Assembly: GCA_965219455.1 (NCBI GenBank)
Contig: OZ244744.1
Location: forward strand, 2,240,001 to 2,304,000
Length of the DNA: 64,000 nt
Direction of reading: 5' to 3'
Source of the DNA: Candidatus Latescibacterota bacterium
GTDB lineage: Bacteria; Latescibacterota; UBA2968; GCA-2709665
Position 1 is the stretch's first letter; every line of letters starts with the position of its first letter. The notes below the pieces were generated by a model, which saw only the letters and a program-made list of their open reading frames with translations, did no database searches and was not told where the DNA came from. Below, piece by piece: positions 44,806-49,691 of this stretch. A program made the translations under genes and the position numbers.

Positions 44806-45843
44806 CTACGCCTGCCCGCGGTCCAGGGTCTCCCGGAAGAGTCGAAGGAAGTTGCCGCCCCAGATCTTCCGGATTTCGTTCTCTGAGAGACCACGACTGA
44901 GCATGGCGCGGGTGAGGCGCACAAGCTTTGAGACGTCTCCAAAAACAGGTGTGCGCGAACCCATGCCGTCGTAATCGGAACCGATGGCGACGTGGTCGAT
45001 ACCGACCAGGTCGGCCACGTAACAGATGTGGTCGACCATTCGGTCCACGGAAGAATTCTCCGGATCGATAAAGCCTGGCAGAAAGGCGATGCCCATCACC
45101 CCACCGGAGGCGGCCAGCGCCCTGAGTTGATCGTCGGTGAGGCAGCGCCAGTGGTTGCAGACGGAAAAAACCGCGGTGTGGGTCATCGTTACCGGGAGGG
45201 AAGACAGTTCCAGAACCTGGTAGAAAGCTTTGTCATTAATATGGGCCAGGTCGGTGATGATGCCCAGCCGGTTACTTTCCTCGAGCACGGCCTTGCCGAA
45301 GTCCGTCAGACCGATGGCGTTCCTGCGTTCACGTTCACGGTCGTCCGGCGTGCATGGGCCGAAAGGACTCTTGCTGCCCTGAAGGTAGGCCCCGGCGTCC
45401 CCGCCTTCGCCGTGGGTGATCCCCACGCAGCGTACGCCCAGGCGGTAGTAGAGACGAAGAATATCCATCTCCCCTTCCAGCCAACGTCCCGCGCCTTCGA
45501 TTGTAAGCAGGATGCCGATTTTGCCGGATGCTCTCGCACGTTCAACGTCCTGTGGCGAGAACACCAGCATCAGGTCCTCGGGATACCGCTCCACCGAGGC
45601 CAGGGTCTGTTCCAGGGTTACACGAACGTTTGCCGTCGGACCGTTGCCGACCACGAAAAAGCCGGCATCGAATCCGCCTTCCCTCATCCGGGGAATGTCC
45701 ATGTGATACGCGGGATCCCGTTTTTTCAGGTCCATCGGGCGCTCGCCGCGGTGCACGCGCTCCACGGGCGTGTCGTTGTGGCCGTCGACGATTAGGCAGC
45801 GGTCGTGGACTGCCTGCGCTTCTTCAAGGGTAATGTCCGGCAT
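44806..45843 (-). CDS. Membrane dipeptidase (peptidase M19) family
   Basis: VDGHND, IEG, GL...G, DLAH, TH, RCLTD.Q, HV.IGSDYDG, GGNFLR. Confidence 0.9.
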   Translation of the reverse strand: MPDITLEEAQAVHDRCLIVDGHNDTPVERVHRGERPMDLKKRDPAYHMDIPRMREGGFDAGFFVVGNGPTANVRVTLEQTLASVERYPEDLMLVFSPQDVERARASGKIGILLTIEGAGRWLEGEMDILRLYYRLGVRCVGITHGEGGDAGAYLQGSKSPFGPCTPDDRERERRNAIGLTDFGKAVLEESNRLGIITDLAHINDKAFYQVLELSSLPVTMTHTAVFSVCNHWRCLTDDQLRALAASGGVMGIAFLPGFIDPENSSVDRMVDHICYVADLVGIDHVAIGSDYDGMGSRTPVFGDVSKLVRLTRAMLSRGLSENEIRKIWGGNFLRLFRETLDRGQA

Positions 45844-45912: not shown

Positions 45913-47235
45913 CTACGGCGGGTCGACCGGTACTTTCTGGTTCTTGCGGACCAGGGGATCGTATGTAAATCCGTCGGACCGTTTTTCGAACTCGGCGCGT
46001 ACCTTTTTCATGTTCTCCGGGCTCCGGCAGAGGTCGACCGCGGTTCCGGCGAAAACCTTGGCGGTCTGCCGGATCGAGCGCTCGGCGAAAGGCAGCGCGG
46101 CCTGCGCGGCCATGTCCCGGTGATGGCCAGGCGTTCCCTTTGCATAACAGACCATCTGGAAGCGTCCCAGAGGGGCCAGCCAGGAAACGTTGTCTTCGTC
46201 GGTGGAGCCCCGGCCCTGGGAACCGCTGCCCTTGGCTATCTTCGTGTTGAACCCCTTTTTGTAGCCGAGGGCTTCGGCGCGCTTCGTGTCGGCTTCCGTC
46301 GGTTCGGGCGGCCCGAAGAGTTTCAGGTTTTTTCGAACAATCTCACACATTGACTTGTTGGGCAGACGCGGGTACACGGCAGTGATACGCGACCATTTCA
46401 TCTTCGTGTCCGTGGCTTTGGCGGCGCCCCGGGCGCAGGCGGTGAGGCGTTCACGCACTTCGTCTACCTGCGCGCGGTCCTTGCCCCGTACGAAGTACCA
46501 GATCTTGGCATAGGCCGGCACCACGTTGGGGGCATCGCCTCCATTGCGAATGACGGAATGAATCCTGACGTTTTCGGGAACATGCTCCCGGAGGTAGTTG
46601 GCGGCAATATCCGTGAGCATCACCCCGTCCAGGGCGCTGCGGCCCCGGTGAGCCCACGCGCCGTGGGCGGTGCGGCCGAAGAACTCGTAAACGAGGGAGT
46701 CCAGCGACGATCCGCCAAAATTGTTGACGCCGGAAGAATTCCCCGGATGCCAGGCGAGGCAGGCGTCCAGGTCCCGAAACCCGCCGTCGCGAGCCATATA
46801 CACTTTGCCGGCCAGGGTTTCCTCGGCCGGACAGCCGTAGTAGACGATTGTGCCCGATGTTCCGGTTGATTCGAGGATTTTTGCAGCGGCGACCGCACCC
46901 ACGGCCGGGGCAACGCCCAGCAGGTTGTGGCCTCAGCCATGCCCCCAGTCACCTTCCTCGGGACCGCAGTTCGGCAGCGCGTCGTATTCCCCCAGCATCC
47001 CGACCGCCGGTTCTCCGTTGCCCCGGGTCGCGCGAAATGCCGTGGGGATTTTCTTGAAAGAGAATTCGACTTCGAAGCCGTGCGAAGCCAGGTAGTCCGC
47101 GACCGCTCCCGAGGATTCGACCTCCCGGAAGGGCCGTTCCGCCCAGGCGTGCACCCGCCTGGAAAGGTTCCTGGCGCGTTTCGACTCGTCCGCTACGGTG
47201 CGATCGATGAAGTCCTTTTTATCTTGCGAGGTCAT
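45913..47235 (-). CDS. AbgB/Acy1-like M20 amidohydrolase with an in-frame TGA (candidate selenoprotein), 440 aa if read through
   Basis: The two track ORFs are in the same frame: ...GEYDALP...WGHG-[TGA 46935..46933]-GHNLLG...GCPAEE...WHP...GRTAHG...GRSALD...PNVVP...GSTD..NVSW. Confidence 0.85.
46897..46932 (-). promoter_or_regulatory. Candidate bacterial SECIS element immediately 3' of the UGA
   Basis: UGA-GG-CCAC-AACCU-GCUG-GGC-[GUU]-GCC-C-CGGC-C-GUGG: apical loop starts with GU, 18 nt after the UGA; lower CCAC/GUGG stem. Confidence 0.55.
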
Positions 47236-47342
47236 GACATATCCCTTCTGTAAAAAACGCCGGCCCACGGTTAATGGAATTGCCGCGTTGGATCGTCAAC
47301 GGTTCCGGATCGATCTTCGCCCCGAGTTTTCGAGCGACAAGT

Positions 47343-48431
47343 CTATGGTTTGACGATGGCATCAACGACCGCGTCGCCCACCTCCGGAGTCGCAGCTTCC
47401 CCGCCCAGGTCCGCCGGATGGTTTGCCGGATGGACAAGCGTTCGATCGACGGCGCGGTCAATTGTCTGTGAGGCGGCGGCGGCTTCCGGATCGTTATGGC
47501 GGCTGCCCAGCCAGGACAGCATCATCCCCGCGGAGAGGATCTGGGCTATGGGGTTGGCGATGCCCTTCCCGGCTATATCGGGGGCGGTACCGTGGGAAGG
47601 CTGGAAGACGCCGTAACGATCGCTGACGTCGGCCGAGGGCGCCATACCCATCCCGCCGATAGTAGCTGCGGCCAGGTCCGAAATGATGTCCCCGAACATA
47701 TTTTCTGCAACGACAACGTCGTACCACGCGGGGTTGCGTAACTGGTACACGGTGAAGGCGTCCACGTAGGCATAATCCCGCTCGACGTCGGGATAGGATT
47801 CTGCCACCTCGTCGTAGATCTGCCTGAAAAAGGCCATGCTTTTCAGAATGTTGGCCTTGTCCACCGAGGTGACGCGGCTTTTCCCGTCGGCGGGCGCCCC
47901 CTCCCGTTGTTTTGCGATTTCAAAGGCGTACCGTACAATCCGCTCGGTACCGGCCCGGGTGATAACCATGTTGTCCACGGCGAGGCTGTCGCCGAGAAGA
48001 ACCCCGGCGCCCCTGGAGGCGTAAAGGCCTTCGGTATTCTCGCGCATAATGACGTAGTCGAGCGGCGGATTCCCCTCCAGAAGCGGAGGCACGCCACGAT
48101 ATTTCTTGATGGGCCGGATCCCGGCGTAAAGGTCGAGTTCGAAGCGCAATGTCAGCTGCGGTGCGATTTCCGTGCCATCCGGAAACCGTATATCCGGGTC
48201 GCCCGCGGAACCGAAAAGGACGGCATCGGACTGTTTGCAGGCGTTGAGCGTGGGCTCGGGCAGGTCATTGCCGGTTTCGGCGTAACACCTGGCGCCCACC
48301 GGGTACTCAGAAAAGGTGAATCGGAGATCGGGATGCGGCTCCTCGAGCGCGAGAAGTACTTTGAGCGCTTCCGCGACTACTTCCGGGCCGACGCCGTCTC
48401 CAGGGAGTACGGCAATGTTGTACGTTGGCAT
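47343..48431 (-). CDS. Isocitrate/isopropylmalate (beta-decarboxylating) dehydrogenase family
   Basis: LPGDGVGPEV, LR..LDLYA.IRP, RENTEG.Y, VDKAN, NMFGDIISD, P.HGTAPDIAG. Confidence 0.9.
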   Translation of the reverse strand: MPTYNIAVLPGDGVGPEVVAEALKVLLALEEPHPDLRFTFSEYPVGARCYAETGNDLPEPTLNACKQSDAVLFGSAGDPDIRFPDGTEIAPQLTLRFELDLYAGIRPIKKYRGVPPLLEGNPPLDYVIMRENTEGLYASRGAGVLLGDSLAVDNMVITRAGTERIVRYAFEIAKQREGAPADGKSRVTSVDKANILKSMAFFRQIYDEVAESYPDVERDYAYVDAFTVYQLRNPAWYDVVVAENMFGDIISDLAAATIGGMGMAPSADVSDRYGVFQPSHGTAPDIAGKGIANPIAQILSAGMMLSWLGSRHNDPEAAAASQTIDRAVDRTLVHPANHPADLGGEAATPEVGDAVVDAIVKP

Positions 48432-48527: not shown

Positions 48528-49691
48528 TCAGCGGCGGCGCCGGGAACGCTGGCGATCATGGATGCCGATTCGGAATCCGCCCTCGGATCCCACGCCGCGT
48601 TCCAGCATATCCGGTTCGACGTCGAATCCCGCGCCGGGCGTTTCGGGTACGATCAGTCTGCCGTCTTGCATCCGCCACCCGTCCAGGACGATGCCGGGCA
48701 TATCGGCGGGCGCCGCTTCCAGGAGGCTGAAGTTGGGAATGGAGGCGGCGAAGTGGGCGTGTGCGTAGCGTTCGATGATACTCCCCCAGCAATGGGGCGC
48801 ACACTTCGCGCCCCAGGGTTGGATACGGTCTGCGGTGGCTTTCCACCAGGTCAGACCCTTGAAGCGAAAGTCGTGCTGCACGATGTCTATCCATCCCTCT
48901 TCGACCATATCGAAGAAGTGGGGTGGAGGCGGCCCGGATTCACCGTCGGCCACGAGCGTGTTGCAGCCTCTCCGGACGATCGCTTCTTTAAAAGCCTGGT
49001 TGAACGCCCGATCTTCAGGAAACGGCTCCTCAAACCAATAGACGCCCACGTCCCGGCAGCGATCGAGTATGTCCAAAGCGATATTGAGCGTGGTTCCGTT
49101 GTTGGCGTCAACGAGGATTTTCCCGTCCCGTCCCGCGGCTTCGCGAACCGCGTGGATCACCAGCACGTCCCTGTCCGTTCCTTCCCGGACAGGCATCCAG
49201 CGCGCGCCGCGGCCGATTTTGATTTTGAAATTGCGATAGCCGTGTTTGTGACCGGTCCGGACCTCTTCGTGAAATATATGCTGCGCCTGATCGTCGGTAG
49301 TACCCAGATCGTCGATGTAGATGGAGCCGTCATAAAGTTCCACTTCGCGGGAACCACGCGCTCCCAGGAGTTTATAAAGAGGCACCCCTTCACATCTGGC
49401 GGCCAGATCCCACAGGGGCAGATCAATGGCTGCGCCGGCCCCTTTCGACCCCCGGGGAAGTTCGAAGAGGTCCGCGGGTCCCATTCCTAGCAGCGTTTCC
49501 GCGCGCTCCTTGTCGAGGGTCGACCAGCCGATGCCGACAGCGCCACCCTCGGTGCAGATGCGCACGACCGGGTCCGTAACGACCTGGCCATGGGTGCCGA
49601 TGCGGGCGTTTGATCCGATGATACGCGGACGCCTTCCGCGGACGATAACCTTTTCGATCTTGACGATGGGATCGGAGAAAGTACAGGGCAT
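48528..49691 (-). CDS. Mandelate racemase/muconate lactonizing (enolase superfamily) protein
   Basis: IDLPLWDL.A....PLY.LLG, KIKIG, VDAN, WFEEP, ADGE, PH. Confidence 0.87.
   Translation of the reverse strand: MPCTFSDPIVKIEKVIVRGRRPRIIGSNARIGTHGQVVTDPVVRICTEGGAVGIGWSTLDKERAETLLGMGPADLFELPRGSKGAGAAIDLPLWDLAARCEGVPLYKLLGARGSREVELYDGSIYIDDLGTTDDQAQHIFHEEVRTGHKHGYRNFKIKIGRGARWMPVREGTDRDVLVIHAVREAAGRDGKILVDANNGTTLNIALDILDRCRDVGVYWFEEPFPEDRAFNQAFKEAIVRRGCNTLVADGESGPPPPHFFDMVEEGWIDIVQHDFRFKGLTWWKATADRIQPWGAKCAPHCWGSIIERYAHAHFAASIPNFSLLEAAPADMPGIVLDGWRMQDGRLIVPETPGAGFDVEPDMLERGVGSEGGFRIGIHDRQRSRRRR

Follow-up and report, generated by a model that had tools for sequence, protein, structure and literature searches.

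A 64,000-nucleotide stretch of DNA from a Candidatus Latescibacterota bacterium (GenBank assembly GCA_965219455.1, contig OZ244744.1, positions 2,240,001 to 2,304,000 of the forward strand), referred to here as “the window,” carries on its minus strand a gene for an M20D amidohydrolase that is interrupted by a single in-frame TGA. The TGA occupies codon 101 and has the context D-W-G-H-G-[TGA]-G-H-N-L-L-G, i.e., it stands where related enzymes have the Cys of an H-x-C-G-H motif (Table 1). Here, we describe the evidence that this is very probably a selenoprotein gene, in which UGA 101 is read as selenocysteine (Sec) by the host's SelA, SelB, SelD and tRNA-Sec, SelB would be recruited through a conserved 29-nt RNA element, and Sec101 would serve as a metal ligand. 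A first-pass annotation of the window, made from the letters alone, had proposed Sec decoding on the grounds that the open reading frames (ORFs) 47268..46933 and 46902..45913, both on the minus strand, join into one protein. Re-reading the frame confirmed that the two ORFs share it, and that translation from the ATG runs for 440 residues, interrupted by one internal stop and by no second lesion; the coordinates and the peptide given in that annotation were correct.

Table 1. Features of the window discussed in the text. RNA positions (+) are numbered from the U of UGA = 0.
Feature	Position in window	Strand	Remarks
M20D amidohydrolase, whole gene, 440 codons, one TGA	45913..47235	-	ATG at 47235, TAG at 45915..45913
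In-frame TGA, codon 101, proposed Sec codon	46933..46935	-	Aligned to the Cys of the H-x-C-G-H metal-ligand motif
Conserved 29-nt RNA element, candidate Sec insertion sequence (SECIS)	46890..46918	-	+17 to +45; low synonymous variation, two hairpins
Hairpin a, GGGC-[GUU]-GCCC, loop +21..+23	46908..46918	-	Four pairs invariant (52/52); core of the hairpin proposed by the first-pass annotation
Hairpin b, 7-bp stem CGGCCG(U/C) / GCGGU(C/U)G, 4-nt loop N-G-G-(U/C) +35..+38	46890..46907	-	Seven pairs, 100% paired
Isocitrate/isopropylmalate dehydrogenase family, upstream neighbor	47343..48431	-	Iso_dh, E = 4.9e-92
M19 membrane-type dipeptidase, downstream neighbor	44806..45843	-	Peptidase_M19, E = 8.5e-84
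Enolase superfamily (mandelate racemase/muconate lactonizing enzyme), two genes upstream	48528..49691	-	MR_MLE_C, E = 8.8e-39

Contigs from four public sequencing runs, each from a different study, carry the TGA unaltered, which argues against a sequencing error. Every one of these contigs spans positions 46400-47300 in one piece, and no other letter occurs at 46933-46935. The window itself may derive from the closest DNA run of the four. Metatranscriptomic libraries account for two of the runs; their contigs show 32-34 differences from the window, all of them outside 46851-46923. TGA is also the commonest ordinary stop of the host genome, a single contig of 5.84 Mb (G000:C1), where it terminates 1111 of 2190 long frames, meaning that the genetic code has not been reassigned. 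In each of the 37 genome copies that were read to the end, the M20D gene itself closes with TAG or TAA; a metagenome copy, L181, terminates in TGA, unlike the genome copies. As the first-pass annotation had predicted, annotation pipelines report the gene in fragments, the C-terminal ones being named “peptidase dimerization domain-containing protein” by NCBI.

The read-through product matches the TIGR01891 “amidohydrolases” model with 188.1 bits (cut-off, 153.75) and the Pfam models Peptidase_M20 and M20_dimer above their cut-offs, with M20_dimer covering residues 184-273. Within NCBIfam release 20.0, only generic models matched, and no selenoprotein-specific one. An AlphaFold model of the product, built on a 20-sequence alignment (predicted local distance difference test, 84.8; predicted template modeling [TM] score, 0.86), superimposes on HmrA of Staphylococcus aureus (3ram_A) with TM scores of 0.81/0.90 and a root-mean-square deviation of 2.4 Å over 422 columns. 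Because most sequences in the underlying alignment are Cys homologs, the model speaks for an intact fold and says nothing on selenium. As modeled, the protein has the two-domain M20D fold, in which the N- and C-terminal parts together make up a catalytic domain and a dimerization domain is inserted between them.

Among proteins of solved structure, HmrA (3RAM) and human PM20D2 (7YH4/8XZC) come closest, followed by ILL2 (1XMB), YxeP (1YSJ), 4EWT, CsAga (6SLF), and 3IO1. HmrA, an M20D carboxydipeptidase/aminoacylase, is the best match in sequence (E = 4.8e-40 with a single sequence, 2.2e-59 with a profile) as well as in fold. HmrA shares the two-domain layout and the motif G-H-x-C-G-H-N, but it has Cys where the window gene has TGA, and the two are about 26% identical. 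PM20D2, second-best in both sequence and fold, has the same motif and domain order, but it is eukaryotic, contains Cys, and is about 24% identical; PDB listings differ in naming it Xaa-Arg dipeptidase or beta-alanyl-lysine dipeptidase. CsAga, an N-alpha-acyl-glutamine aminoacylase from Corynebacterium, and the plant enzymes ILR1/ILL2 belong to the same M20D subfamily, although identity falls to 16-19% and all have Cys. AbgB, subunit B of p-aminobenzoyl-glutamate hydrolase, has the M20 superfamily and G-H-x-C-G-H-N-L-L-G in common with the window gene, but the match to 3IO1, a solved “aminobenzoyl-glutamate utilization protein,” is weak (E = 9.6e-5 with a single sequence, 7.6e-8 with a profile).

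In M20D enzymes, the metal site consists of the ligands Cys-His-Glu-His-His together with a Glu that acts as general base. Codon 101 is aligned to the Cys of H-x-C-G-H in 3ram, 7yh4, 8xzc, 1xmb, and 1ysj. According to a passage in one review, this Cys bridges the two zinc ions of CsAga (PMC11511702). A passage in a plant paper states that, in ILL2-type enzymes, the metal cofactor is coordinated by the motif Cys, and that a Cys137Ser substitution in peach PpILR1 abolished hydrolysis (PMC8149794). The alignment to solved structures and these two passages support the view, already taken in the first-pass annotation, that the residue replaced at codon 101 is a metal ligand.

The TGA is not confined to the assembly from which the window was taken, a possibility that the first-pass annotation had named as a threat to its proposal. 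A six-frame search found an ortholog in 37 of 41 related genomes, with exactly one TGA in each. Among 168 Latescibacterota genomes, 57 gave a match at E ≤ 1e-100, and 55 of these have one TGA; the TGA-bearing orthologs are 68-100% identical to the window gene and are distributed over three family-level groups. The two matches that lack the TGA are those of G154 (68% identity), which has TGC, and G058 (44% identity), which is paralog-like. In all 46 genome loci that were read, out of the 55, the TGA column is identical, with the surrounding sequence W-G-H-G-[TGA]-G-H-N-L-L-G-(V/T)-A.

Outside the clade, the homologs carry TGC or TGT at this codon. Among the best 80 genome-contig loci, all 29 with TGA come from the Latescibacterota clade, and 50 with TGC or TGT come from other phyla (Verrucomicrobiota, Planctomycetota, Lentisphaerota, Armatimonadota, Nitrospinota, Bacillota, and others); the remaining locus, L151, has no match to the motif. 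Protein databases gave the same picture: of the 120 matches listed, the 104 that are full-length all have Cys at the codon-101 column. The other 16 are N-truncated pieces that start 4 to 46 residues past this column, which fits gene callers cutting at the TGA. A search with the pattern G-H-[GA]-TGA-G-H-[ND]-L-L-G returned 33 metagenome stretches, 32 of them of the Latescibacterota type. A human-gut metagenome contig, L178, has a TGA (L178:157-159) in an AbgB-like M20 gene and was considered as a second Sec lineage, but it was rejected: Cys is present in its 99%-identical relatives, which form a 247-member cluster, and no hairpin is conspicuous, so its TGA looks like a one-off nonsense variant. 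Named records put the TGA-bearing clade in Latescibacterota. Public labels are inconsistent, with some metagenome-assembled genome records of the same clade (L074, L076, L084, L097, L100) titled Gemmatimonadota or Planctomycetota.

Selection on the protein is purifying 3′ of the TGA, with no sign of relaxation. Comparing the window gene with its orthologs (Nei-Gojobori), the ratio of nonsynonymous to synonymous substitution rates (dN/dS) is 0.07-0.20 downstream of the TGA, as obtained for 13 of 17 pairs and with dS saturated in several between-family pairs; the upstream range is 0.09-0.62. Residues H99, U101, H103, E138, E139, H163, H371, and H372 are invariant across 49 distinct Sec forms. 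The set U101 (in place of Cys), H103, E138, E139, H163, and H371 is also invariant in 20 mixed homologs. The host genome contains no second match at E ≤ 1e-30, meaning that no close Cys copy stands in for the interrupted gene.

A complete set of genes for Sec insertion is present in the host genome, with selA, selB, selD, and tRNA-Sec all scoring above curated cut-offs. The tRNA-Sec gene scores 73.6 bits (gathering score, 47), and ARAGORN calls it as tRNA-SeC with anticodon tca; ordinary tRNAs of the same genome reach up to 45.5 bits on the tRNA-Sec model. It is the last gene of a head-to-tail cluster in which it follows selA (562 bits) and selB (366.6 bits), at C1:4374106-4377628 on the plus strand. 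The selD gene (359.8 bits) lies apart, at C1:3407174-3408097 on the minus strand, and has one in-frame TGA of its own in the context CG-U-AAK.

Across the phylum, the TGA form of the M20D gene goes together with the Sec trait. Of the 168 genomes, 131 have selA; among the 55 that bear the TGA, it was found in 54. The one TGA-bearing genome in which selA was not found (G032; 91% complete, about 430 contigs) has a tRNA-Sec of 68.5 bits. In genus g29, which belongs to the same class as the host and is represented by two genomes that are 86% and 90% complete (G154, with ortholog L187, and G155), neither genome has selA or a selB over the cut-off, and tRNA-Sec scores only 46.1 and 49.5 bits. This genus may have lost the Sec trait, and G154 is the genome with the only in-phylum ortholog that has TGC.

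The relationship between Sec and Cys forms was examined with a quick LG+G4 tree, which is unrooted and contains 144 distinct rows, 39 Sec and 105 Cys (L027-L046, L064-L073, L097-L153, L187-L195, and those of P0002-P0061 with ≥430 residues, leaving out duplicates, L047-L063, and L074-L096). All Sec rows fall in one clade of 45 rows (Shimodaira-Hasegawa-like approximate likelihood ratio test, 94) that is nested among Cys forms. The same clade includes six metagenome Cys proteins (P0005, P0006, P0008, P0010, P0011, P0012). The tree requires a minimum of five changes between the Sec and Cys states, at least three of which are forced by well-supported branches. Taking the distant Cys clades as outgroup, these changes suggest one gain of Sec followed by reversions.

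Synonymous variation is strongly depressed immediately behind the TGA. When 49 distinct Sec-form genes were aligned by codon, normalized synonymous entropy averaged 0.70 across the 293 codons of the gene that could be scored. The 13 windows of 10 codons with the lowest values have their starts at codons 100-113, and the minimum, 0.14, is reached at codons 106-115. At the nucleotide level, the 29-nt element (Table 1) is nearly invariant over 52 distinct 54-nt stretches. Folded as two hairpins, a and b, it is paired in 572 of 572 cells in these 52 sequences, a score equaled by 2 of 500 shuffles. Within hairpin b, pair 30-45 is G-C in 43 sequences, G-U in 6, and A-U in 3, and pair 35-40 is C-G in 31 and U-G in 21. 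The loop of hairpin a is GUU in most sequences and GUA in some. Codon G107 is GGC in 52 of 52 Sec forms, as compared with four codons among 51 distinct Cys forms, in which residues 108-113 vary as well; this contrast is only indicative because the set of Cys forms is more divergent. The in-phylum Cys form of G154 allows a fairer comparison, and there the downstream sequence no longer forms the hairpins.

In the bSECISearch model, a bacterial SECIS is a hairpin that directly follows the UGA and has a G in its apical loop, at a distance of about 16-37 nt. The first-pass annotation had proposed a wider hairpin, in which a CCAC/GUGG helix and a GCUG/CGGC helix surround the GUU loop. The letters for this structure are present in the window, but only its GGC/GCC core is kept in the 52 distinct sequences. 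Indeed, the wider hairpin is paired in 78.1% of cells, the CCAC/GUGG helix in 61.5%, and the outermost G-C of GCUG/CGGC in 7 of 52 sequences; the outer helices are not conserved, and we dropped them as SECIS structure. The long single hairpin that RNAfold prefers for the window sequence was also set aside, with 92.5% of cells paired, a pair (29-36) that fails in 38 of 52 sequences, and no covariation. As to which of the two conserved loops SelB might choose, hairpin a and the GGUC loops of selD and of an fdhA-like gene (see below) have their G-U equally far from the UGA, but the loop of hairpin a has only 3 nt. Hairpin b has G-G-U in its loop and the sole covarying pair, yet it lies 15 nt further from the UGA.

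Several other genes of the host genome contain an in-frame TGA. A gene for a formate-dehydrogenase-type molybdopterin oxidoreductase (fdhA-like; G000:C1:5417168-5418439, plus strand) has one TGA in the context SRA-U-HAPTVAG, with a GGUCU hairpin loop at +21. Family searches additionally found a TGA-interrupted rhodanese gene (CY-U-QGGYRS), two AhpC/TSA-type genes (one with N-U-PTC), and two CMD/AhpD-like genes (HCVY-U-I). The loci of this set are G000:C1:4029824-4030156, 219084-219359, 3107795-3108178, 588227-588385, and 585243-585392, all on the plus strand; one of the CMD genes has a TAA 12 codons past the TGA and may be broken. The family searches took the place of genome-wide scans. A TGA scan by codon score was too noisy as a selenoprotein finder, and a dicodon scan, in which the M20D gene ranked 14th of 29,745, had mostly gene boundaries in its top rows; selD ranked only 8,754th because its part upstream of the TGA is short. 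The sequence GGCGUUGC occurs behind the TGA of both the rhodanese gene (C1:4030058 onward; GGCG-[UUG]-CGCC, +35..+45) and the M20D gene (within GGGC-[GUU]-GCCC, +17..+27), which may be chance or may reflect a common SelB-binding feature.

Together, the presence of the machinery, the TGA in 55 genomes, and the purifying selection downstream of it strongly support the reading of the UGA as Sec that the first-pass annotation had put forward. In the mechanism we propose, UGA codon 101 would be decoded as Sec by the genome's own SelA, SelB, SelD, and tRNA-Sec. SelB would be recruited by the 29-nt mRNA element, which begins at +17 and is predicted to form two adjacent hairpins. Sec101 would replace the Cys of H-x-C-G-H as a selenolate metal ligand alongside H103, E139, H163, and H371, and E138 would be the general base of a dinuclear hydrolytic, non-redox center.

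Other explanations have to account for the same observations. TGA can be reached from TGC or TGT by one base, and L178 is a clear case of such a change in the same wider family, so one might suppose that a nonsense change of this kind, or an assembly error, inactivated the window gene. However, the TGA occurs in 55 genomes and three family-level groups at 68-94% identity to the window gene, as well as in contigs of four independent runs; furthermore, dN/dS downstream is 0.07-0.20, the ligands are invariant in 49 distinct sequences, and 37 full genes have no second lesion. A pseudogene or an error is therefore extremely improbable. Translation might instead stop at the TGA, with a separate C-terminal protein of about 330 residues starting soon afterward and the two pieces acting jointly or apart. 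Gene callers do give C-terminal pieces of 320-336 residues, starting from L105, L106, V112, or later, and the window has a GTG at codon 112. Yet 24 of the 52 distinct sequences have no ATG, GTG, or TTG anywhere in codons 102-118 (17 codons), and elsewhere the position of such a codon varies (105, 106, 112). The break would also fall exactly on the Cys codon of H-x-C-G-H, leaving each piece without part of the metal site, and a split gene would leave both the co-occurrence with selA and the frozen synonymous sites unexplained. We consider it very unlikely.

The UGA could also be read through without selenium, if a near-cognate or suppressor tRNA inserted Trp, Cys, or some other residue, or if SelB delivered a residue other than Sec. 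None of our computations distinguishes the inserted residue itself, and in other systems, Cys insertion at Sec codons has been described under selenium scarcity. Such read-through is nevertheless unlikely in a genome in which TGA is the commonest ordinary stop and a dedicated tRNA-Sec (tca), selA, selB, and selD are present. Moreover, the TGA form tracks selA across the phylum, with TGC where selA was not found, and Trp would presumably be unable to serve as a metal ligand.

Sec decoding remains the reading we favor, and several observations weigh against it or against parts of it. The insertion of selenium, the binding of metal by Sec101, and SelB's choice of loop are what we infer, and the role of the replaced Cys is taken from homologs. 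Contigs from RNA libraries prove neither transcription, nor expression level, nor translational read-through. The covariation in the RNA element amounts to one base pair, in hairpin b, that is changed on both sides in three sequences; it is thin because nine of the eleven pairs never vary, and invariant pairs are mute on structure. The 60 nt after the TGA (46932..46873) have an ordinary fold energy (z = +0.37), and 129 of 200 dinucleotide shuffles fold at least as well. In two windows picked after the fact, the 29-nt element by itself folds into two hairpins at -15 kcal/mol (z = -1.12), and hairpin b by itself gives z = -2.76, with 2 of 200 shuffles as good. The signal above chance lies in how well the TGA and the synonymous sites after it are conserved, and not in fold energy. 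An Rfam search of the element gave no match, and a permissive threshold added three chance-level rows, the best of which reached 18 bits where the gathering score is 60. In one ortholog, L064, the loop of hairpin a is ACA. Finally, the loops of the M20D gene, GUU at +21 or N-G-G-U at +35, differ from the GGUC loops present at +20/+21 in selD, the fdhA-like gene, and one AhpC-like gene.

With regard to the wider meaning of the locus, we lean cautiously toward a selenium-dependent metallohydrolase in which the selenolate of Sec101 coordinates, and probably bridges, both metals, and which is fixed across much of Latescibacterota, with at least two reversions to Cys, one of them likely in a lineage in which selA was not found. 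If so, selenium would have been selected for its effect on a hydrolytic metal center (for example, on metal preference, the pKa of the ligand, or how well the ligand withstands irreversible oxidation) rather than for redox catalysis. The first-pass annotation called selenium as a metal ligand unusual. Ligation itself is already known, e.g., from formate dehydrogenase; what is unusual is the hydrolytic, non-redox setting. In [NiFeSe] hydrogenases, Sec is likewise a direct metal ligand. Formate dehydrogenase FdhA and the [NiFeSe] hydrogenases resemble the M20D gene in having a Sec ligand that is encoded by UGA with an mRNA element just downstream. However, they are redox enzymes with redox-active metals, whereas the M20D protein is a hydrolase, and at its dinuclear, Zn/Mn/Co-type site the oxidation state of the ligand would be expected to stay constant. 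To our knowledge, Sec is redox-active in nearly all characterized selenoproteins, and where it binds a metal, the metal center does redox chemistry.

The main text of a 2026 review of the prokaryotic selenoproteome describes Sec as a metal ligand in FdhA (Mo/W) and puts at about 20% the share of selenoprotein families with a predicted role in binding atoms or chemical groups, in most cases metals, Zn among them; Sec as a metal ligand thus has precedents. The family table of the same review does not list the M20D family, and its main text names no amidohydrolase, M20, peptidase, hydrolase, acylase, amidase, AbgB, deacetylase, TIGR01891, or PF01546. Similarly, the terms amidohydrolase, M20, peptidase, and hydrolase are absent from the main texts on deep-Sep and BSepDB, and Table S2 of BSepDB, which covers all families, may bear on novelty. 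Literature searches, with supplements and the BSepDB site outside their scope, found no report of this selenoprotein family. Papers that join selenocysteine with amidohydrolase and UGA, or with aminobenzoyl-glutamate, were irrelevant by title and the start of the abstract, as was a Campylobacter avium paper in which the terms co-occur by chance. A Sec maintained across a clade at a metal-ligand position of an amidohydrolase offers a natural test of selenium versus sulfur as ligand, for which matched natural Cys forms at 70-76% identity are available. Owing to its fragmentary annotation, the enzyme is missing from metabolic reconstructions of Latescibacterota.

The M20D gene is part of a same-strand series of genes in the order MR_MLE, Iso_dh, the M20D gene, M19 dipeptidase, a zinc-type dehydrogenase (ADH_zinc_N), a flavin reductase (Flavin_Reduct), and a GFO_IDH_MocA oxidoreductase. 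Iso_dh is adjacent to the M20D gene in family f1 and in some genera of f2, and in no other TGA-bearing loci; M19 is adjacent in f1 only. Since the order Iso_dh-M20-M19 holds in family f1 only, it says little on the substrate, and we dropped the neighborhood as a clue to it. In E. coli, abgB lies in an operon beside abgA, a second M20 gene, and the transporter gene abgT. Among the neighbors of the M20D gene, there is neither a second M20 gene nor a transporter gene. Several of the Cys-containing homologs are named AbgB in one source, which is probably a carried-over label. By analogy with the nearest solved relatives, HmrA and PM20D2, the substrate is probably a dipeptide or an N-acyl amino acid; HmrA is described as preferring Met-X dipeptides in passages of two papers.

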